Below, piece after piece: positions 1-8,572 of a stretch of 64,000 nt of DNA. Made by a program: the position numbers and the translations under genes. Source of the stretch: an uncultured virus (IMG/VR IMGVR_UViG_3300027887_000010) (Duplodnaviria; Heunggongvirae; Uroviricota; Caudoviricetes); the IMG/VR virus record IMGVR_UViG_3300027887_000010; one strand, given 5' to 3'. The notes beneath the pieces are model-generated. The model did no database searches. It was given only the letters and a program-made list of their open reading frames with translations, and had not been told where the DNA came from. Position 1 is the first letter of the stretch; each line of letters opens with the position of its first letter.

Positions 1-31
1 GCCGGCCATCGTGTCGGTGAGCACTCACTTC

Positions 32-73
32 CTGTATAGATAGACAGTATAAATAACCTGTACAGATAGACAG
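32..73. promoter_or_regulatory. Two LexA (SOS)-box-like operators, CTGT-N8-ACAG
   Basis: CTGTATAGATAGACAG at 32-47 and CTGTACAGATAGACAG at 58-73. A minus-strand TATACT (46-51) overlaps box 1. Confidence 0.6.
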
Positions 74-151
74 TCGGCGCAGCCTGGGAGCGGGGCCTAT
101 AAACTAGGCGACTCGGCGCAGCCTGGGAGCGGGGCCTAAAAACTAGGCAAA
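74..151. repeat. 39-bp tandem repeat, 2 copies
   Basis: tcggcgcagcctgggagcggggcctaWaaactaggc starts at 74 and at 113. Confidence 0.9.
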
Positions 152-714
152 CCAGGCGCAGGCATAGCAAGAAATAGACCAGTCACGGCGCTCACATAGT
201 AGAAGCAAAAAGCAGACCCGATATTTGCCTACTTATTAGGCAAATTGACGTTTATGTAAAAAGCATCCCCTCAGCAAAGTACCTGCCGCAGCGTGTAAGC
301 GATTTTTTTCTGCGCCTATACCAGTACATGACCAACCTGGCGATCGTGCAGCCTGCGCGATTTGTAGCAGCCTACTTATTAGGCAAACAAGTGTTTCACG
401 ACAAGCAATAAGCGGACCATGCAGCATCAAGCAAGAAGCAGACCAGATATTGGGTACTATACAGGGAGGGGGCCTGCGTAGTAGGCGCCTACATACCAGG
501 CAATGAGAAAGCAAGAAGCAGACCATGTGGGCGCCTCACAGTAGATAAAGCAACATCTAGACCAGCGAGGCGTCTGTACGGTATTGGCTATAAACAGCCT
601 ACATAATAGGCGCCCAAATAGTAGGCAATGCAGCCTGCACCGACTGCCCGTTATATAGGCGCCCACATATTAGGCACATGCGTCGCCTACATAGTAGGCG
701 CCCAATACATAGGC
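95..714. repeat. Array of 12 dyad-symmetric 15-bp motifs, consensus GCCYA-N5-TAGGC
   Basis: Copies start at 95, 134, 227, 370, 472, 487, 597, 612, 646, 661, 685 and 700. Confidence 0.85.
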
Positions 715-1163
715 ACCTGGCGCATCGCGCGGTCGCTCGATAAATAGGCAACGACGCACCGATAGTCAAAGCCTACCCCTACCTCCCCCTTGATAGTCTT
801 TAGCTATGGGGCGCGCCCACCCTAATCTCCCTATCTTGAGTCCATCCTTATAATCCCATAACTTCTATCTACTTATACTTGATGTATATTACTTCTTATA
901 GTCGATTCATGTAAATATATTAGACTGGTATGAATCTTGCTACACGGACGCGCCCATCTGGTAAGTATGCTATAGCAAAGTCTATTAACGTATAAGCACA
1001 TATACGACATCTTTGTTATACTTTCCTACTAATCCTCATATAAATTAGTAGTTGATCCTAAATTTACCCTCACATTTTATACAACAATCATGTTTCTGTA
1101 AAAATATGGAGGCTGTATTTTTCAAAGCTTTACGACTGTTAAGTTATCCTTTAAAAAAGATTA

Positions 1164-1192
1164 TTGCACACTCCTAAAAGTTACTGCATAAT
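1164..1192 (+). promoter_or_regulatory. sigma70-type promoter upstream of the structured RNA
   Basis: TTGCAC, 17-bp spacer, CATAAT; AT-rich upstream element. Confidence 0.65.
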
Positions 1193-1198
1193 GCATTC

Positions 1199-1890
1199 AA
1201 CACGAAGCCTGCACAAACACTTCCCGTAGAAGTGCGACCAGTTCTCGCTAACTCCCTAAGAGCTCTGGCATGAAATGTGGTCATTGTGCAGGACTGCCGG
1301 GTAACAGCGGCGTAAGACCATCAACATACTGTTACCGTGAACTGGAAATGGGCCTAACCCATTCGAAAAGTAAAGTTGGTGCCTAAAAGCTGGCAGAGCT
1401 CAATGTAGGTTAGAGCAAATTGGGTAGCGATGGTTAAAGCCTCAGTTGTCCAAACCAACTTTACGTTCTAAAGATATATGTACCAATAGATCTGGACCTT
1501 GGGTTGCTACCCCTCCCGGCAATTGCGGATTGGAGTTTCCTCCCCTTTTCTCCAGTCTGACCTACCAGTTTTGACCAGACTGGTGGCCAAGGTTCAGTTC
1601 TATTGGTATAAGTCTTACAGAAGGCAATATTTAAAGTCTTACAGGTCATCAGCTTCTTCAACTTTTCATAAGAAAGGAGATAAGGCTGCGGGAACAGCGG
1701 GCTGATGACCTTCCTAACGTCAAATAGAAAGCAATTATGACTTCACAATTTAAACGGATCTTGTTTCCGTTGCAAGGTCCGCGTATATTCACAAACAGCT
1801 TTTGGCCTGTTCATGTAATGTCGTCCGCTGTAAACGGTTATTCCGAGCGATTTTTTCTTGTACGTCCAGATTGGAAGAAGGTTAATCCGC
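1199..1890 (+). ncRNA. Putative large, highly structured non-coding RNA (3' end uncertain, 1710-1890)
   Basis: More than 10 complementary segment pairs of 6-21 bp, several crossing. No credible CDS. Promoter directly upstream, tRNA directly downstream. Confidence 0.65.
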
Positions 1891-1912
1891 CCTGTTAGCA
1901 TGAAGGTCGTGC
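1889..1912 (+). pseudogene. 5' remnant of a tRNA gene (acceptor strand and D-arm), Thr-like
   Basis: GCCCTGT-TA-GCAT GAAGGTC GTGC parallels the 5' end of the intact tRNA-Thr that follows. Confidence 0.55.
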
Positions 1913-1983
1913 TCTTGTAGCTTGAAGGTCGAGCAGCGGCTTTGTAATCCGCAGGTGACAGTTCGATTCTGTCCAAGAGCACC
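1911..1983 (+). tRNA. tRNA-Thr(UGU)
   Basis: Acceptor GCTCTTG/CAAGAGC, anticodon loop TT-TGT-AA, T-arm GACAG-TTCGATT-CTGTC. Confidence 0.9.
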
Positions 1984-1993
1984 GAGGAATATT

Positions 1994-2371
1994 ATGGCAA
2001 TTTGTACAGGATGCGCTAAAGAATGGGAACCTTCTCGTAATTCCAAAGGTTTATACTGTTCCGCAAAGTGCCAACAAGCTGTTAGTATTGCAGAACGGTA
2101 TGTTCGTTTCTTAAATGATGAAGAAAACGTATATAAGGGTATTCATACTCTCAAAGATGCGGTTATTCGTCGTGATGGAAATAAATGTTTTTGTTGTGGT
2201 ATTGAAGAGTGGAATGGGAAGCAGATTGTGTTTGATCTTGAACACAAAGACGGAAATCCATATAACGATAAAGGTTCTAATCTTTGTTTATTATGCCCAA
2301 ACTGCCATTCTCAGACTACAACATACAAAGGTGCTAACAAAGGATTTGGAAGAAAAGAACGCTCTGTATAA
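1994..2371 (+). CDS. HNH endonuclease with N-terminal Cys motifs
   Basis: RDGNKCFCCG...EHKDGNPYND...NL.LLCPNCH; RBS gagga before ATG 1994. Confidence 0.85.
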   Translation: MAICTGCAKEWEPSRNSKGLYCSAKCQQAVSIAERYVRFLNDEENVYKGIHTLKDAVIRRDGNKCFCCGIEEWNGKQIVFDLEHKDGNPYNDKGSNLCLLCPNCHSQTTTYKGANKGFGRKERSV

Positions 2372-2388
2372 TTCTCTCACGGGCACCA
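2371..2388 (+). pseudogene. 3' remnant of a tRNA gene (T-stem strand, acceptor strand, ACCA)
   Basis: ATT-CTCTC-ACGGGC-A-CCA at the HNH stop. Pairs with GCCCTGT (1889) with one bulge. Confidence 0.55.
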
Positions 2389-2407
2389 TTTAATAAGGGA
2401 GATTTAA

Positions 2408-2650
2408 ATGAATGATATTCAAGATCGTGTAATTGATATTTTAAGTTCCCAACTAGGTGTTTCTGTTGGAGATATTACTTTAGAAAAGAATATTACAACA
2501 GACTTAAATGCAGATAGCCTAGACATTTACGAAATTGTAATTGAGCTAGAAGAAGAATTTAAAGTTGTTATTGAAGACGATGTTATTGATACGTTAAAGA
2601 CAGTCAATGATATTGTACTTCTTGTTCAGAAGCTTTTGGGGGATAAGTGA
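2408..2650 (+). CDS. acpP: Acyl carrier protein
   Basis: 80-aa acidic protein with DL.ADSLD..EIV..LEEEF and phosphopantetheine Ser motif. Confidence 0.9.
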   Translation: MNDIQDRVIDILSSQLGVSVGDITLEKNITTDLNADSLDIYEIVIELEEEFKVVIEDDVIDTLKTVNDIVLLVQKLLGDK

Positions 2651-2877
2651 CCACTCCGGTTATTAGGTTGTGTCCTGAGCCAAACACAACAATGACACCA
2701 GCTCAAGCTTTACATTCGGTGTTGCCCGCTATTGAAGCTGGAATGCAGGATCTTCTTATTATTGGATACGATGTAGATGGTGACTTATTTATTCGTTCCA
2801 GTAAAATGACACGAGCTGAAGCATTTTTCATGGCTCACAAAGCTATGCAATGGGCAGAATCTGGGGGAATAACATGA
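2647..2877 (+). CDS. Hypothetical protein
   Basis: Overlapping stop/start coupling and RBS. Confidence 0.7.
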   Translation: MTTPVIRLCPEPNTTMTPAQALHSVLPAIEAGMQDLLIIGYDVDGDLFIRSSKMTRAEAFFMAHKAMQWAESGGIT

Positions 2878-3194
2878 AACTTACTTGGAAAGTTGATCCA
2901 CCTCCTAGTGGAAGATGGAAATCTTTTACAAAGCGTGGATGGCCTACTGCAGAATGGCCAGATGGTTCAATTGCTGCGCTAATCTATTGTGTAGATGAAT
3001 ATGTCCCTCGACTGGTGAAAAAGGGTGAACATGCCCCTTTAGTTATATGGGTATTTCAATATAATGTGCCTGGATATGAACCTAAACTTTCAAAGCGTCA
3101 TAAGCTAAAGCGTACTGTAGATACAATTCAAGAAGCAAAGGATCTTGTTAAGAAGTTCTTTGAAGAACACATAACTTGGATTCCTTTAGATTAA
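2874..3194 (+). CDS. Hypothetical protein
   Basis: ATGA overlap; RBS ggggga. Confidence 0.7.
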   Translation: MKLTWKVDPPPSGRWKSFTKRGWPTAEWPDGSIAALIYCVDEYVPRLVKKGEHAPLVIWVFQYNVPGYEPKLSKRHKLKRTVDTIQEAKDLVKKFFEEHITWIPLD

Positions 3195-3210
3195 CTTTGC
3201 GTAAGGATCA

Positions 3211-3333
3211 AGGGTGAATGCGTAGGCTGATACGCAGGTGGGCACATCTGCTATGGTTAGCAAGTGCTGCGACGGCTTTAAACCTATGAACGCGGATAAC
3301 CAAGCAAGCCGGAGATCAGCACCGGCCACCCCT
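3211..3333 (+). ncRNA. Putative tRNA-like structured RNA with a kissing-loop pseudoknot
   Basis: Closing stem GGGTG/CACCC, hairpins TGCGTA/TACGCA and GCCGG/CCGGC, complementary loop segments GCTGAT and ATCAGC. Confidence 0.6.
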
Positions 3334-3342
3334 TCAATCTCG

Positions 3343-3375
3343 GCCTGGGTGGTGAAATTGGTAGACACAAGGATT
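3343..3375 (+). pseudogene. 5' remnant of a tRNA-Leu gene
   Basis: GCCTGGG-TG-GTGAAATTGGTAGACAC-AAGGA: Leu-type D-arm, truncated at the anticodon stem. Confidence 0.8.
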
Positions 3376-3378
3376 AAC

Positions 3379-3406
3379 TTGCAAATTAGCATACAACTGT
3401 TAAAAT
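3379..3406 (+). promoter_or_regulatory. Promoter inside the tRNA-Leu/HNH insertion
   Basis: TTGCAA, 16-bp spacer, extended -10 TGt-TAAAAT. Confidence 0.55.
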
Positions 3407-3426
3407 TTTTATAAGTTAACAATTTA

Positions 3427-3509
3427 GCGGGAGTAGCCGAATGGTATAGGCATCGGACTTAAAATCCGACGACATTGTCATGTGGGTTCGAATCCCATCT
3501 CCCGCACCA
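3427..3509 (+). tRNA. tRNA-Leu(UAA)
   Basis: Acceptor GCGGGAG/CTCCCGC, anticodon arm TCGGA-CT-TAA-AA-TCCGA, long variable arm, GGTTCGAATCC, encoded CCA. Confidence 0.95.
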
Positions 3510-3516
3510 TCATTAA

Positions 3517-3975
3517 ATGAAAATATACGGGCCTTATTTAAGAAAAGATGGTAGAAAGCATGTCATCATTATTCATGATAATGGAATAAGTCAGACACGT
3601 TCTTATCCTAGATTACTTTTAGAACAAAAATTAGGTCGATCTTTAACAGATGAAGAGACTGTTGATCATATAGATGGAGACTTCACTAATGATGCTCCTG
3701 AAAATTTAAGAGCTTTGTCCAGGGTAGAAAATGCAGCGAACGGTTGGATTACTGGCAATTGTTCAGCTTTTGTAGCTACAAAAGAATTTCGTGATAAACA
3801 AAGGTTATTGCATTCTGGTTCTAAAAATGGAATGGCTAAACTTACAGATAAACAAATTTTAGATATAAGATCAAGACCTAAATATCACGGTATTATCCGC
3901 GATTTAATGTTAGAATTTAATTTATCAAGAAGAACAATTCAAAACATATTAAATCATACTTCCTATTTATTATAG
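3517..3975 (+). CDS. HNH homing endonuclease with C-terminal DNA-binding (NUMOD/HTH-like) region
   Basis: LGRSL...ETVDHIDGDFTND.PENL..L...EN; C-terminal G.KNGMAKLT..QI..IR. Confidence 0.85.
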   Translation: MKIYGPYLRKDGRKHVIIIHDNGISQTRSYPRLLLEQKLGRSLTDEETVDHIDGDFTNDAPENLRALSRVENAANGWITGNCSAFVATKEFRDKQRLLHSGSKNGMAKLTDKQILDIRSRPKYHGIIRDLMLEFNLSRRTIQNILNHTSYLL

Positions 3976-3993
3976 ATCCCGTCCCAGGCACCA
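3975..3993 (+). pseudogene. 3' remnant of the disrupted tRNA-Leu gene
   Basis: GAT-CCCGT-CCCAGGC-A-CCA. CCCAGGC pairs perfectly with GCCTGGG at 3343. Confidence 0.8.
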
Positions 3994-4021
3994 AAGTTTT
4001 AAAAATTTAAGGACATTAGTT

Positions 4022-4219
4022 ATGAACCAACGGTATTTTTCCAGAAAATTCATTCTTACATTGCTTGTCATTATTCTTGCAACACTTTTGCTATTATTTA
4101 CCTTTATTGAATCTTCTATGTGGGTCACTGTATGCCTTGCCTCACTAGCTTTCTATCAAACTGCAAACGTCAGTCAAAAATATAAGGAAACTAAAGAGGT
4201 ACTTAATGGAAATTCTTGA
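4022..4219 (+). CDS. Small two-TM membrane protein
   Basis: Two hydrophobic segments; RBS aagga. Confidence 0.65.
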   Translation: MNQRYFSRKFILTLLVIILATLLLLFTFIESSMWVTVCLASLAFYQTANVSQKYKETKEVLNGNS

Positions 4220-4382
4220 AATGATTGCAAAGTGGCGAAAAGGGTGTATATGTTCAATAGAAGGACACCCCGAAGAATGTTTATCTTGCACTATTGCTCT
4301 TATTGATGCAATTGAGAATAAAGAAAAAGCACGTCTAAATATTTCTATTGATCAAAAAGAGGAAGAACATCGTGTCTGCTAA
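4206..4382 (+). CDS. Hypothetical Cys-containing protein (58 aa, not in ORF track)
   Basis: MEILEMIAKWRKGC...; RBS gaggt; fills the gap between neighbours. Confidence 0.6.
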   Translation: MEILEMIAKWRKGCICSIEGHPEECLSCTIALIDAIENKEKARLNISIDQKEEEHRVC

Positions 4383-4656
4383 AGCAACTGGTCAGGATAC
4401 TGATTATTATGTTGTTACGATCACAGATCCAAAGCGTTTAGCACCCTATAAAGCTGAATGTGAAGATATTATTGAAGTCCTTGGAATGAATTTTGCAGAG
4501 GGTAATGCATTTAAAGCGATTTGGCGTAGTTGTGCAGCTAGGACTCTTGGGAATATAAAGCCTGGTTCTGACCAAAAAGGTGTTTACGACGCTGAAAAGG
4601 TGGAGTATTATGGGCGTCGTATGGTTGCTATCCGAAAACGTCAAGAAACATCTTAA
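4372..4656 (+). CDS. DUF3310-like protein (T7 gp1.7 nucleotide kinase-like)
   Basis: ECEDIIE..GMNFAEGNAFKAIWR...D.EK..YY pattern; GTG start after gagga. Confidence 0.6.
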   Translation: MSAKATGQDTDYYVVTITDPKRLAPYKAECEDIIEVLGMNFAEGNAFKAIWRSCAARTLGNIKPGSDQKGVYDAEKVEYYGRRMVAIRKRQETS

Positions 4657-4669
4657 TCTGGAGACTAAA

Positions 4670-5086
4670 ATGTATATCCCAAAACTTGCTTATGAAAGTT
4701 TACCTTTCACTTATATTGTGATTGGAATTGTCGGTCTTTTTTCTAGCGTAAACTTTGGGATACTTTTTGGTGTTATTTTGATCGGCATTGCATTGTACAT
4801 CCAGAGCAAAAGAAACTTCTATAGATCGATGATCAAAAATATGAAAATTACAGGGAATAAGATGAGATTATCAGTTCTTGAAGGTGATCCAAATAAAACA
4901 CAAGATGCTCATAAATACAATGTTTTTCTTGATGGTATAAAACAAACACATTGTATCATTGCAGATAGTGAAAATGGCTATGTTCTTCGTTATAAAAGAA
5001 CAGGCCTTGGTACTTTGAGCGTAGGCAGGGATGGCAAACTAAAGACAGAAGAATGCTTTGGCAATGTGGTCATTGAAAGTAAGTAA
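4670..5086 (+). CDS. Hypothetical protein with N-terminal TM segments (possible internal start at 4862)
   Basis: RBS ggag before ATG 4670; hydrophobic N-terminus. Confidence 0.6.
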   Translation: MYIPKLAYESLPFTYIVIGIVGLFSSVNFGILFGVILIGIALYIQSKRNFYRSMIKNMKITGNKMRLSVLEGDPNKTQDAHKYNVFLDGIKQTHCIIADSENGYVLRYKRTGLGTLSVGRDGKLKTEECFGNVVIESK

Positions 5087-5304
5087 TGACAATTGAATAT
5101 GCACCGATCATTAAAAAGGCACAGTTAGAGAAACACGTCGCAGAATTGCGACTCGGTGCTTCAAATCTAGCACATTCTGCTGCTTGTATTGAACGAAACG
5201 ATGAACTTGAAATTAAAATTCGTCAGGAGATTCATGCGTTACAAGATATTATCTTAGATAATGCTGCAATTATTTTTCACTGTATTGCGAAGCAAAAGGA
5301 ATAG
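5086..5304 (+). CDS. Hypothetical protein
   Basis: TAATG coupling. Confidence 0.6.
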   Translation: MTIEYAPIIKKAQLEKHVAELRLGASNLAHSAACIERNDELEIKIRQEIHALQDIILDNAAIIFHCIAKQKE

Positions 5305-5444
5305 AAGGATTATTGTACAATAATCTTCTGTGTTGTGTATAGCGAGGTTGGTAGCAGTACCTTCCTCGTTTTGTTTTGTACTACTGTAAGCGTTACCTAT
5401 AGCAAGGCGCTGGAGAATAAACTAACTTTTCTGCAATCGTCGCC

Positions 5445-5473
5445 TTGTAAAAGGGCAGTTTGTCTTTTATACT
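5445..5473 (+). promoter_or_regulatory. sigma70-type promoter for the terminase operon
   Basis: TTGTAA, 17-bp spacer, TATACT. Confidence 0.6.
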
Positions 5474-5501
5474 CTGGTCATGCTTAAATAAGGTGATCAA
5501 A

Positions 5502-6020
5502 ATGTCCGAAGGTTTTTTCTGGAAATCCAAATATGGTGATCAAGTTACTCCAGATATGACTGGACAGGAGCGTGAACTGCGTGACTTGTTTGTTCGTGAA
5601 TATTTGGTAGACTTCGATTCGAAAGCTGCTGCAATCCGTTGTGGTTTTGTTGAAAGCTATGCTGAACAATATGCTGTTCAGTTTATGGGTGAAACTTACG
5701 TTCGTAAGCGTATCACAGAATTGTCTCATTCTACGGAAGAAAAGGATGATGCTGAAAAAGAGGCTGAAACCCGCCAACGAATTCTCACATCGCTATTTAG
5801 GGAGGCTAATTACAGGGGTCCTGGTTCTAGCCACGGCGCTCGTATTGCTGCTCTTTCCAAGCTGGCCTCGTTACATGGGATGGATGTACCGACCAAAGTC
5901 GAGCAGACCATTAATCACAAGGGTGGTGTGATGACTATCCCGGCAGTTGGATCTTTAGCTGAATGGGAAGAACAAGCAATGGCTAGTCAAGAAAAGCTGG
6001 TGTCTGAGGCGGAATCTTGA
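5502..6020 (+). CDS. terS: Terminase small subunit
   Basis: FVREYLVDFD.KAAAIRCG HTH motif; directly upstream of TerL. Confidence 0.85.
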   Translation: MSEGFFWKSKYGDQVTPDMTGQERELRDLFVREYLVDFDSKAAAIRCGFVESYAEQYAVQFMGETYVRKRITELSHSTEEKDDAEKEAETRQRILTSLFREANYRGPGSSHGARIAALSKLASLHGMDVPTKVEQTINHKGGVMTIPAVGSLAEWEEQAMASQEKLVSEAES

Positions 6021-8572
6021 GGATATTACCAGATGGGACTAAAGTTGTTTGGGAGCCCCTTAAAGGTTCTCAAGCCTTATCCCTCACTTGTCCTGCTAAT
6101 ATTATTGTATTTCACGGTACTCGTGGGCCAGGGAAGGGGCTTCCTATCAATGAACCTGTCTATACACCTACCGGACAGGTTCAAATAGGTCTGTTAAAAG
6201 AAGGGGATCTTGTTTGCTGTCCGGATGGATCTACTAGCCCTATTGTAGGTGTGTATCCTCAAGGTCAACGTCAAACTTATGAGATTGAATTTTTTGATGG
6301 TTCAATTGCTAGGTGTGATGACCAACATATTTGGAATCTTCATATTGGCGGAAGGTTTCCTGCTGGTACGTATAAGAACTTTACAATGTGTGAAGTTCTT
6401 AGGATGTTTAAAACAACAGATTACAGACTTAACATTCCAACTTTAGATAAGGTTGAGATGGTTACGTGTACAAGCCTTCCAATTGAACCTTATATGATGG
6501 GTTTGTTCCTTGGTGATGGTTGTTCAGCACAACGTGGTTCTTATTGCACTGTTGATTCTGAACTTGCGGATCATGCTTTAAGTCATGGTTTTCGGGAAAC
6601 ACTTTTTGATCAACGTAACGGTCTCCGAAACTTTAGTGCAAATTGCGAATTTACAGAAGCAATGAATAAGCTTGGTTTGCAAGATGTTCGTTCGCAGACA
6701 AAATACATTCCATCTATTTATTTACATCAGCCCTATGATTTACGCCTTGCAATTTTACAAGGCGTAATGGATACAGATGGGACAATTGATAAGAAAGGTT
6801 ATATTTCATTCTGTAGCAGCAGTCTGCAACTTGCTAAAGATGTGCAATACCTTGCACGATCGCTTGGTGCTCGGGCTACGCTAACGGATAAATGGCCTAG
6901 TATCAGCGAAGTAGTTTATGATAAAGTGTATCAGGTGTATATCCAAACTGGAAATAAATTTACCCCATTTAGGTTGAAGCGTAAGGTTGATAGAATTAAA
7001 CCTTACATGCATAAACATCTGACAAACAAGATTGTTGCAATTAGGGAACTTGGGTTGCAAGAAACTGTTTGTATCAAGATTGCGCATGAAGATGGTTTGT
7101 TTATCACAAGAGATTTTGTTGTCACACATAATACGGACGCACAGTTGATGCGTTTTAGACGTAATGTTGGCCAAGGATATGGTCGATATTGGCGCGGGAT
7201 TATTTTTGACCGTGAGTACAAGAACCTTGATGACTTGGTTTCCAAGTCTATGCGGTGGTTTCCTGAATTTAAAGATGGTGCTCGCTTTATGTCAAGTAAA
7301 GCAGACTATCGTTGGGTATGGCCTACGGGGGAAGAACTTCTATTCCGGGCTATTAAGAAGGATACAGACTATTGGGGTTATCACGGTCAAGAGTTTCCGT
7401 TTATTGGCTGGAACGAATTAACAAAGTATCCTAACGATTCATTGTTTGAGTCAATGATGTCTTGTAACCGTTCTTCTTTTTTACCAAGTGAGCATCCTCA
7501 ATATATTGGTAATGATCCTGTACCTCATTATTTAAATGAACTTCCACTAGAAGTTTTTATTACCACAAATCCATACGGAGCTGGTCATAATTGGGTTAAG
7601 AAACGGTTTATATCGTGTGGTAAAGCTGGGCAGATTGTCAAAAAGGTTGTAAATGTATTCAACCCAAGGACTCAACAGCGCGAAGATGTTGTTAAAACTC
7701 AGACACACCTATTCGGGAGCTATCGTGAAAACACATATTTGTCTCCTCAGTATGTTGCAGAGTTGGAAGGAATCTCTGATCCAAATAAGCGTCGGGCTTG
7801 GTTGTTTGGTGATTGGGATATTGTTGCTGGTGGTATGTTCGATGATGTTTGGGACAAAAATGTCCATATTATTGATCCATTCGATATTCCGTCAAACTGG
7901 CGTATAGATAGATCTTATGATCATGGTGAGTCACGTCCTTTTTCTGTTGGTTGGTGGGCGGAGTCTGATGGTAGTGATGTTAAACTCTCAGATGGTAAGT
8001 GGATGAGTACCGTAAAGGGTGACTTATTCCGTATTGATGAATGGTATGGTTGGACAGGCAAAGCTAATCAAGGTTTACGTCTGTTATCTACAGTTATTGC
8101 TGAAGGAATTGTAGAACGAGAAGTTCAAAATGGAATTCATAATAGGGTTGTTCCAGGGCCTGCAGACAATAGTATTTGGGATGTAGAAAATGGTAATTCT
8201 ATTGCAGCAGATATGGCAAAGCCTGTTAAGTTAGACAGAAAACGTTATAAGGGTGTTCAGTGGCTTCGTAGTGATAAAGCAAAGGGTAGTCGCAAAGCAG
8301 GTTGGAAACAAATTCGAAATTATCTTAAGGATGCATTACCAGTAACACGTGAAGAAGACGGAAAAATTCTTAGTCTGCCTCGCGAAAAGCCTGGTATGTT
8401 TATTTTTAATAACTGTACAATGTTCATAGAATTGTTTCCAGTTGCTCCTCGGGACGAAAACGACCCCGACGATATTGATACGGAATCAGAAGACCATATT
8501 TGTGACGAAGTGCGATACAAAGCATTATCAACGGATATTGGTGCTCGCGGTGGTAGAACTAGAGGAATGTAA
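6017..8572 (+). CDS. terL: Terminase large subunit, intein-containing
   Basis: Walker A GTRGPGK/T, GQEF.FIGWNELT, TTNP.G.GH.WVK, nuclease DRSYDHG and EDHICDE.RY. Confidence 0.95.
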   Translation: MRILPDGTKVVWEPLKGSQALSLTCPANIIVFHGTRGPGKGLPINEPVYTPTGQVQIGLLKEGDLVCCPDGSTSPIVGVYPQGQRQTYEIEFFDGSIARCDDQHIWNLHIGGRFPAGTYKNFTMCEVLRMFKTTDYRLNIPTLDKVEMVTCTSLPIEPYMMGLFLGDGCSAQRGSYCTVDSELADHALSHGFRETLFDQRNGLRNFSANCEFTEAMNKLGLQDVRSQTKYIPSIYLHQPYDLRLAILQGVMDTDGTIDKKGYISFCSSSLQLAKDVQYLARSLGARATLTDKWPSISEVVYDKVYQVYIQTGNKFTPFRLKRKVDRIKPYMHKHLTNKIVAIRELGLQETVCIKIAHEDGLFITRDFVVTHNTDAQLMRFRRNVGQGYGRYWRGIIFDREYKNLDDLVSKSMRWFPEFKDGARFMSSKADYRWVWPTGEELLFRAIKKDTDYWGYHGQEFPFIGWNELTKYPNDSLFESMMSCNRSSFLPSEHPQYIGNDPVPHYLNELPLEVFITTNPYGAGHNWVKKRFISCGKAGQIVKKVVNVFNPRTQQREDVVKTQTHLFGSYRENTYLSPQYVAELEGISDPNKRRAWLFGDWDIVAGGMFDDVWDKNVHIIDPFDIPSNWRIDRSYDHGESRPFSVGWWAESDGSDVKLSDGKWMSTVKGDLFRIDEWYGWTGKANQGLRLLSTVIAEGIVEREVQNGIHNRVVPGPADNSIWDVENGNSIAADMAKPVKLDRKRYKGVQWLRSDKAKGSRKAGWKQIRNYLKDALPVTREEDGKILSLPREKPGMFIFNNCTMFIELFPVAPRDENDPDDIDTESEDHICDEVRYKALSTDIGARGGRTRGM
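6137..7132 (+). mobile_element. Class 3 intein with LAGLIDADG endonuclease in the TerL P-loop
   Basis: Starts GLPINEPVYTPTG, ends VVTHN/T. LAGLIDADG motifs MMGLFLGDG and LQGVMDTDG. WCT triplet present. Confidence 0.85.

Follow-up and report, generated by a model that had tools for sequence, protein, structure and literature searches.

Two broken tRNA genes of an uncultured tailed phage, each holding an HNH endonuclease gene and a complete tRNA of the same isotype

Homing endonucleases are thought to persist in essential genes through introns or inteins, or else to reside between genes. In phages T4 and T6, the free-standing GIY-YIG homing endonuclease SegB is encoded in a cluster of transfer RNA (tRNA) genes, cuts the tRNA genes of relatives that lack segB at a recognition site that includes a T-loop motif, and is inherited together with the surrounding tRNA genes, according to the part of the account available to us (PMC2330249), and in T6 the tRNA-Tyr gene and segB are described as acting as a unit of approximately 0.7 kb (PMC13096335, available in part). 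In fungal mitochondria, endonuclease-encoding mORFs are described as forming gene hybrids in atp6 of Allomyces and in atp6, atp9, cox2, and nad3 of Glomus (PMC3630166, also available in part). The locus considered here lies in a 64-kb stretch of an uncultured tailed phage (IMG/VR record IMGVR_UViG_3300027887_000010; 64,000 nucleotides (nt), referred to below as the window) and consists of two units, placed just upstream of the terminase genes, which are built in the remains of a tRNA-Thr(UGU) gene (1889-2388, the Thr unit) and of a tRNA-Leu(UAA) gene (3343-3993, the Leu unit).

Both sites formerly held an ordinary tRNA gene in this lineage, for tRNA-Thr(UGU) and tRNA-Leu(UAA), respectively, and the middle portion of each has been replaced by a spare tRNA and an HNH endonuclease gene. 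It is probable, in our judgement, that each unit is a free-standing HNH homing endonuclease that replaces the gene that it breaks, moving together with a complete tRNA matched to this gene in isotype and anticodon. The tRNAs were called by ARAGORN, RNA families were assigned by Rfam, and protein families by Pfam and PHROG. The reference for the resident alleles is G002, a 60-kb record rated 100% complete, which has intact tRNA-Thr(UGU) and tRNA-Leu(UAA) genes of the resident type. The Leu unit and its upstream spacer comprise the following features:

3199..3342, no strand assigned: G+C-rich spacer of 144 nt, directly upstream of the Leu stub, missing in both relatives with an empty Leu site
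3343..3377, plus strand: 5' stub of the resident tRNA-Leu(UAA), with the acceptor 5' strand, the D arm, and the start of the anticodon stem, secure to 3372
3379..3406, plus strand: promoter-like site (TTGCAA, 16 nt, TAAAAT, with TG ahead of the second hexamer), 9/12 consensus match
3427..3509, plus strand: spare tRNA-Leu(UAA), intact, with a long variable arm and encoded CCA (ARAGORN; Rfam tRNA, 66.9 bits)
3517..3975, plus strand: HNH endonuclease open reading frame (ORF) of 152 amino acids (Pfam HNH_3, E 5.6e-8)
3975..3993, plus strand: 3' stub of the resident tRNA-Leu, 19 nt, with the end of the T loop, the T-stem 3' strand, the acceptor 3' strand, and ACCA

An earlier note on this DNA, made from the letters alone, had described the 5' part and the 3' end of a tRNA-Leu gene flanking about 600 nt, and the stubs do match intact tRNA-Leu genes: 3343-3372 (30 nt) has 100% identity with the opening 30 nt of the intact tRNA-Leu(UAA) in locus L035, and 3343-3371 (29 nt) is 100% identical to the start of the one in G002/L038, while the positions that follow, 3373-3377, may be a decayed remainder of the resident tRNA reaching the anticodon. 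The first 26 nt of the stub open at least 191 ARAGORN tRNA-Leu genes among at least 214 occurrences in metagenome and genome contigs, most of which are bacterial tRNA-Leu, with no second layout of the window type among the matches listed, and in viral contigs the same word is the start of an intact tRNA-Leu(UAA) in three other phage contigs. At the opposite end, the 3' stub aligns with the terminus of the G002 tRNA-Leu with identity in 17 of 20 columns, and its acceptor strand pairs without a mismatch with the opening 7 nt of the 5' stub (GCCTGGG), a pairing already pointed out in the note. The 11 nt of this acceptor strand with ACCA occur a single time in the window, against 0.02 expected occurrences, and the 3' stub is unique there, against 0.01-0.02 expected.

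Approximately 36 nt of the resident tRNA-Leu are missing in comparison with G002, namely the anticodon-stem 3' strand, the variable arm, and the T-stem 5' strand, in agreement with the previously reported loss of the anticodon loop and variable arm, and for want of these parts no tRNA can be rebuilt from the stubs. The insert begins with a 54-nt spacer, which separates the 5' stub from the spare tRNA-Leu, a divergent gene that is identical to the resident-type allele of G002 at 56 of 86 columns (65.1%), and ends with the HNH gene, the stop codon of which (TAG, 3973-3975) has its last base in common with the first base of the 3' stub; this divergent intact tRNA, its HNH neighbor, and the abutting stop had all been read correctly. 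The protein combines an I-HmuI-like nuclease domain (residues 1 to ~79) with a helix-turn-helix-like C-terminal domain, and its best structural match is I-HmuI; a sequence search of the PDB gave no match at E <= 1. A promoter had also been claimed for the insert, and this claim was not sustained, given that the site matches the consensus at only 9 of 12 positions and that such sites are not enriched in the region, where six were found against 8.5 expected. By eye, a better promoter-like site precedes the tRNA-Leu and the HNH gene in a relative, L003.

The Thr unit repeats this four-part plan within 2.1 kb, as was also proposed from the letters (two instances in 2 kb), with an HNH family that is unrelated to the one in the Leu unit:

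1889..1912, plus strand: 5' stub of the resident tRNA-Thr(UGU), with the acceptor 5' strand and the D arm, 24 nt, 100% identical to nt 1-24 of the G002 tRNA-Thr(UGU)
1911..1983, plus strand: spare tRNA-Thr(UGU), intact (ARAGORN; Rfam tRNA, 58.6 bits)
1994..2371, plus strand: HNH endonuclease ORF of 125 amino acids (PHROG HNH endonuclease families, best E 3.1e-21)
2371..2388, plus strand: 3' stub of the resident tRNA-Thr, 18 nt, with the end of the T loop, the T-stem 3' strand, the acceptor 3' strand, and ACCA

In this unit, the final 2 nt of the 5' stub (GC) are the first 2 nt of the spare tRNA-Thr, which is identical to the resident-type allele of G002 at 53 of 75 columns (70.7%), and the 3' stub begins at the final base of the HNH stop codon. 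The 3' stub agrees with the 3' end of the G002 tRNA-Thr at 14 of 19 columns, its acceptor strand being one base short, and a ribosome-binding site and start region downstream of it are common to the window and G002; some 31 nt of the resident tRNA-Thr have been replaced in the window. The sequence GAGGA lies 5 nt ahead of the ATG of the nuclease gene, the product of which has no Pfam match at E <= 0.01. Both ORFs are members of homing-endonuclease families, through HNH_3 in the Leu unit and through the PHROG HNH families in the Thr unit.

Splicing is excluded as a rescue of the resident tRNA-Leu because there is no ribozyme and because the ~36 nt are absent. Neither Intron_gpI nor any other intron model of Rfam matched positions 1-6000 of the window at E <= 1, and ARAGORN, when allowed introns of up to 1200 nt, called no tRNA spanning the stubs, and only the intact tRNAs of the cassettes, as would be anticipated from the earlier supposition that the insert is not spliced out. 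Several other candidates were tried and rejected: a group I intron in the Leu unit, in that the ribozyme core is absent and the stubs do not join into a complete tRNA; a split or spliced tRNA, the exons of which are incomplete and for which the intron option of ARAGORN finds nothing; a tmRNA-like RNA, of which ARAGORN finds none; and the att site of an integrase, given that a 5' stub is found on one side and a 3' stub on the other, with no repeat and no recombinase. An integrase-type insertion does have a general point in its favor, since integration typically targets tRNA genes, and integrated elements have partial tRNA copies at their flanks, but it leaves the gene intact and its 3' part duplicated, rather than two stubs and a gap in the resident tRNA-Leu, and the HNH genes are the only ORFs of the inserts that were assigned to a family. 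Such an insertion, or else a functional split, permuted, or spliced tRNA, would thus be a most surprising origin for either unit, and it is given almost no weight here.

Alleles without the inserts, which the earlier note had predicted in advance, are present among the relatives at both sites. In G002, the tRNA genes stand beside homologues of the ACP gene (78% identity), of the ORF at 2647-2877 (70%), and of the ORF at 2874-3191 (recognized by eye from the start of its translation), the last of which is directly followed by the intact tRNA-Leu(UAA); given that the ends of the G002 tRNAs match the stubs beside shared genes, both empty alleles exist at corresponding places. Positions 1100-4600 were also compared with the contigs of four public runs (X5, X6, X8, and X10), with parts of this interval lacking contig cover in X10 and others. 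The contigs of X5 and X6 carry the window form, one contig of 814 nt spanning 3113-3926 with zero differences. In X8, on the other hand, a single contig of 13,979 nt, approximately 94% identical to the window, covers 1100-3065 with the whole of the Thr unit, jumps from 3198 to 3343-3372, and then continues with 79 letters that do not resemble the window; the 30 at the start of these read as an anticodon arm and a variable arm, as in an uninterrupted tRNA-Leu(UAA).

The X8 relative is therefore filled at the Thr site and empty at the Leu site, G002 is empty at both, and the window is filled at both, which makes three allele combinations among the window and its relatives, with the two sites filled or empty independently of each other. 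As neither the X8 contig nor G002 has the 144-nt spacer, the allele difference at the Leu site includes it, and it may be part of the converted tract; its G+C content is far above that of its surroundings, its predicted structure is not unusual (z 0.05), and it has no match among the loci collected for comparison. The pieces from run X10, which are short contigs of 2-4x depth (six compared, with ten further ones outside the comparison), show 5 differences from the window in 515 positions of cassette DNA (three pieces) and 42 in 536 positions of the flanking genes (three pieces), a contrast that is possibly the footprint of a recent spread of the cassette between diverged genomes. Exact-word scans for the two spare tRNAs found matches in their own contigs only.

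The same comparisons bear on an explanation that dispenses with homing, in which breaks in the tRNA region were joined, illegitimately or by microhomology, with DNA of another phage, the nuclease genes being passengers and the layout not self-propagating. The breaks might be due to any nuclease, or to segmental amplification and collapse, as for SegB in T6, where a 718-bp unit of tRNA-Tyr and segB is described as amplifying via microhomology shared by the tRNA's 5' end and segB's 3' end (PMC13096335, available in part). A scar of this type would agree with the overlap of only 2 nt at the left Thr junction, and with the fact that the flanking genes beyond both tRNAs differ between the window and G002, as they do at mosaic boundaries. 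It is nonetheless an improbable account of a four-part layout that is present twice in 2.1 kb and involves two unrelated HNH families, the isotype agreeing in each case with the tRNA linkage of the family elsewhere, and of a Leu site that is polymorphic between relatives of ~94% identity.

In distant phages, too, the nuclease families are found with tRNAs of the isotypes seen here. The Leu HNH has relatives, with 54-69% identity over residues 1 to ~75, at 15 loci of viral contigs, which represent about 10 distinct contexts, because several of the loci are near-duplicates. ARAGORN places a tRNA-Leu(UAA) within ~450 nt of the nuclease gene at 11 of the 15, directly upstream in three (as in the window) and downstream in eight, and in L007, which alone among these eight was read at base level, the stop codon of the HNH gene falls within the 5' end of the downstream tRNA. 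One further locus overlaps a tRNA-Leu(CAA) in a cluster of 23 tRNAs, and a relative in the cultured Salmonella phage SSE121 overlaps a tRNA-Leu(UAA). At the remaining three of the 15 loci, the HNH ORF is found inside an insertion of 626-690 nt in a tRNA gene, and group I introns with an HNH ORF are recognized in phage tRNA genes at the following positions:

L012, 2937-3701: Rfam Intron_gpI, 42.2 bits (E 4e-8)
L014, 2930-3637: Rfam Intron_gpI, 25.8 bits (E 0.003)
L016, 2940-3693: Rfam Intron_gpI, 58.3 bits (above the gathering threshold)

In L014 and L016, ARAGORN calls a tRNA-Leu(UAA) that the intron splits after the first anticodon base; for L012 it sets the boundary elsewhere and calls Phe, although the 5' exon is 93% identical to the tRNA-Leu(UAA) of L013, and the UAA reading was made by hand. 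The presence of the same family inside group I introns at the anticodon of tRNA-Leu(UAA) points to the tRNA gene as the target of the Leu family. The C-terminus of the relatives is zinc-finger-like, in contrast with the helix-turn-helix-like one of the window protein, the two-domain build of which recurs in 13 full-length relatives from metagenomes, with 54-84% identity. A full-text literature search that was thin on subscription journals gave no paper on introns of group I in the tRNA genes of phages.

These intron-borne cousins raise the possibility of a decayed intron, in which a group I intron with the HNH gene once occupied the anticodon of the resident tRNA-Leu, later deletion removed the ribozyme and some of the 3' exon, and a second tRNA-Leu was acquired separately. 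The end of the Leu stub, which lies no more than 5 nt from the insertion site of those introns, speaks for this history, as does the family of the nuclease itself, but the Intron_gpI search of 1-6000 was negative, the T-loop stub follows directly after the ORF, and the C-terminal half of the protein is unrelated to that of the intron-borne forms. The Thr unit, moreover, has the same layout, is broken in the D arm, and has no intron-borne relative among the contexts examined, and in X10 the region of the spare tRNA is as conserved as the HNH gene. As two or three separate rare events would be needed at each of the two sites, we regard this history as unlikely.

A number of other observations were made on the tRNAs near Leu-type nucleases. 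The UAA tRNAs just downstream of the HNH gene in L004, L007-L011, L013, and L017 are only 74-76 nt long, with a short variable region, and in this depart from normal bacterial tRNA-Leu. In L005, a tRNA-like element of ~143 nt follows the HNH gene at 3406-3549, with acceptor strands that pair, a T arm, and a long internal insertion (by eye), and upstream, at 2623-2695, ARAGORN calls a tRNA with a four-base anticodon, while a second match to group I introns is found in L014 at 4530-4751 (47.8 bits). Ten bacterial or metagenomic loci (L056, L079, L099, L145, L203, L204, L207, L208, L237, and L239) have a tRNA-Leu(UAA) with the same 5' part and, by eye, group I-like sequence after the first anticodon base, their record titles including Dechloromonas, Azonexus, and Ottowia. 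Finally, L222 (minus strand, 326-146) has a 5' fragment of tRNA-Leu(UAA) that extends through the anticodon loop and, 57 nt further on, a complete and different tRNA-Leu(UAA), with no nuclease gene visible within its 626 nt.

The Thr-type nucleases were seen in nine other contexts, of which three abut a tRNA-Thr(UGU), four lie in tRNA clusters beside other isotypes, and two have no called tRNA. The abutting relatives are those of L045 (42% identity), Tequintavirus HdH2 (32%), and Synechococcus phage DSL-LC03 (43%). The first of these is a further, partial instance of the layout, with a tRNA-like 5' stub followed by a tRNA-Thr(UGU) and then by the HNH gene. Its stub scores 11 against real tRNA 5' ends, where the maximum in 200 shuffles was 9, and an exact-word scan found it in its own contig only; there is no 3' stub at this locus. 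The Rfam tRNA model, applied to isolated stubs, matched neither the L045 stub nor the verified Leu stub of the window. In another viral contig, L049, a Thr-type HNH homologue has a transfer-messenger RNA (tmRNA) gene downstream of it, at 2717-3120 (Rfam 72.2 bits, gathering 47).

The junctions of the two units have features in common, given that both right junctions are at the same T-loop position, immediately after the stop codon of the HNH gene. For SegB, the T loop is described as the core of the recognition site (PMC2330249, available in part). The left junctions are at different places, that of the Leu unit lying within 5 nt of the site that group I introns occupy in the intron-borne relatives, and that of the Thr unit falling in the D arm, with its GC overlap.

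If the units are indeed homing elements, the nuclease would cut the uninterrupted tRNA gene of a co-infecting relative, and the break, once widened or resected, would be repaired from the genome that bears the cassette, with the stubs and the neighboring DNA providing the homology. Repair of this type would copy both the nuclease gene and the spare tRNA into the recipient, in which the spare would keep the decoding of UUA and ACA, and, with the decoding kept in this way, the invasion would cost the phage little. In this scheme, the spare tRNA would do the job that a self-splicing intron does in other members of the Leu nuclease family. The very first insertion would have to be an illegitimate join, and the 2-nt overlap is what is seen at the left Thr junction.

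Several points weigh against this interpretation of the units as homing elements with their own replacement tRNAs. There is no visible Shine-Dalgarno sequence before the Leu HNH gene, the promoter match of which is weak. The spare tRNAs retain the same anticodon loop and a canonical T loop, and for this reason a resistance to the nuclease, which the earlier note had supposed, is not evident from their sequences. The C-terminal domain of the Leu HNH differs from that of all the tRNA-Leu-linked relatives with a visible context, which means that its target may differ from theirs. In L003, the closest free-standing relative (69% in the nuclease domain), the tRNA is unlike the spare tRNA-Leu by eye, beyond the general features of tRNAs, and the combination of tRNA and HNH gene is thus not an old fixed unit; the spare may instead be the neighboring tRNA of the donor, carried along as in ordinary co-conversion. 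As for the alleles, G002 is only 70-78% identical in the shared genes, with a gene order between the tRNAs that is partly different, the tRNA-Leu of X8 is seen from its upstream side only, and the X10 contrast rests on six short contigs of low depth, possibly from two strains.

A broader proposal, advanced tentatively and with somewhat less than even confidence, is that "break and replace" is a widespread and unnamed lifestyle, in which an element invades an RNA gene that does not tolerate insertions by carrying a whole working copy in place of a ribozyme, and in which a single nuclease lineage may switch between being intron-borne, being parked upstream of a tRNA, and being a cassette with a spare. 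The earlier note had gone further in speaking of a general and possibly undescribed class of mobile element. The same literature search, with its thin coverage of subscription journals, found no paper on a nuclease gene and a complete spare tRNA inside a broken tRNA gene, but the wording is too strong, as the layout extends what is described for SegB (PMC2330249) and for the fungal mORFs (PMC3630166), both sources being available in part.

The portal protein of the phage is 55% identical to the portals of Pseudomonas siphophages such as JG054 and PaMx25, and a DNA search of GenBank phages with 2400-5400 found no relative of the locus, the matches being restricted to a conserved downstream gene and to similarity in tRNA-Leu. 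The nearest record, G001, is a 41.9-kb fragment that does not include the region of the two units, and the protein of the upstream neighbor, searched in viral contigs, gave matches from the same phage only. Upstream of the Thr unit, the intervals 1-800 and 1190-1888 are long stretches without convincing ORFs or any Rfam match, the first having many short repeated motifs, with a direct repeat near 66-150 (by eye), and the second being ~94% identical in the X8 relative; the G+C content is 49% over 1-1000 and 43% over 1001-2000, against ~35-38% over the next 3 kb. Downstream, the large terminase gene (6017-8572, plus strand, 851 amino acids) has an inserted LAGLIDADG homing-endonuclease or intein-like segment, with Pfam LAGLIDADG_3 and Hom_end matches around residues 241-312, between the N-terminal matches to terminase, and this is a third selfish nuclease within 7 kb.

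For RNA genes, the locus would represent a third solution, in addition to residence in introns or inteins and residence between genes, in which the gene is overwritten and a complete substitute is brought in, and this solution has been caught twice in one small region of a phage, with filled and empty states visible in relatives. What the locus adds is the presence of side-by-side units with three allele combinations, a possible footprint of spread, and a direct link to intron-borne forms, and the tie to intron-borne cousins at the same tRNA makes the traffic between intron-borne and free-standing states directly testable. Some of the "tRNA fragments" and tRNA duplicates that annotation pipelines report for phages are likewise explained by the layout. 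Phage tRNAs can counter host defenses that cut tRNAs, and for this reason, if the broader proposal is true, such elements could drive a rapid turnover of tRNA alleles between phages.

Among known systems, HNH endonucleases of the tRNA regions of T5-like phages (F-TflI and F-TflII, as well as F-TflIV) were reportedly described by Akulenko et al. in 2004, as cited in PMC2330249 and PMC10644984, and resemble the window units in being encoded by HNH genes in the tRNA region of a siphophage. The related gp177 of HdH2, which is 32% identical to the Thr HNH, ends exactly at the first base of a tRNA-Thr(UGU), but it lies upstream of an intact tRNA, with no stubs and no second copy at the locus that was viewed. 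The I-HmuI-type and intron-borne HNH endonucleases have a homologous nuclease domain (identity with the intron-borne forms 54-63% for residues 1 to ~75) and an I-HmuI-like fold, and those of L012, L014, and L016 occupy the same tRNA gene, with the left junction of the window near the intron site. The window unit differs from these in having no ribozyme or restorable exons and a different C-terminal DNA-binding domain, and in that a spare gene, instead of splicing, would be what averts harm, if harm is averted at all.

One other comparison is with the synthetic ClvR gene drives, which couple a nuclease directed against a required gene to a functional version of it. The window units follow the same logic, and the locus may be considered a natural counterpart to these engineered cleave-and-rescue drives, which are distinct in that they work in diploid animals, spread by killing the non-carriers and not by copying into a break, and have a resistance of the rescue copy that is designed, where that of the window spare is putative.

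Also among the closest known systems is that of SegB, which has a free-standing nuclease gene among phage tRNA genes, like the window units, and differs in being a GIY-YIG rather than an HNH enzyme and in lying between intact tRNA genes, with neither stubs nor a spare of the same isotype described in the part of the account available to us (PMC2330249). The layout of the window may be seen, by analogy, as an extension of the intronless homing with co-conversion of neighboring tRNA genes that is described there. The fungal mORFs, in the available part of their description (PMC3630166), share with the window an endonuclease gene inside a gene, a foreign replacement, a native piece stranded downstream, and uninvaded alleles in close relatives, but they concern protein genes of an organelle, in which the native 5' part and the replacement form an in-frame fusion. 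In the window, by contrast, an RNA gene of a phage has received a complete and separate replacement, with both 5' and 3' stubs left behind, and no hybrid gene is formed, each spare tRNA being complete and apart from the stubs, at a distance of 54 nt in the Leu unit and beginning at its own position 1 directly after the stub in the Thr unit.

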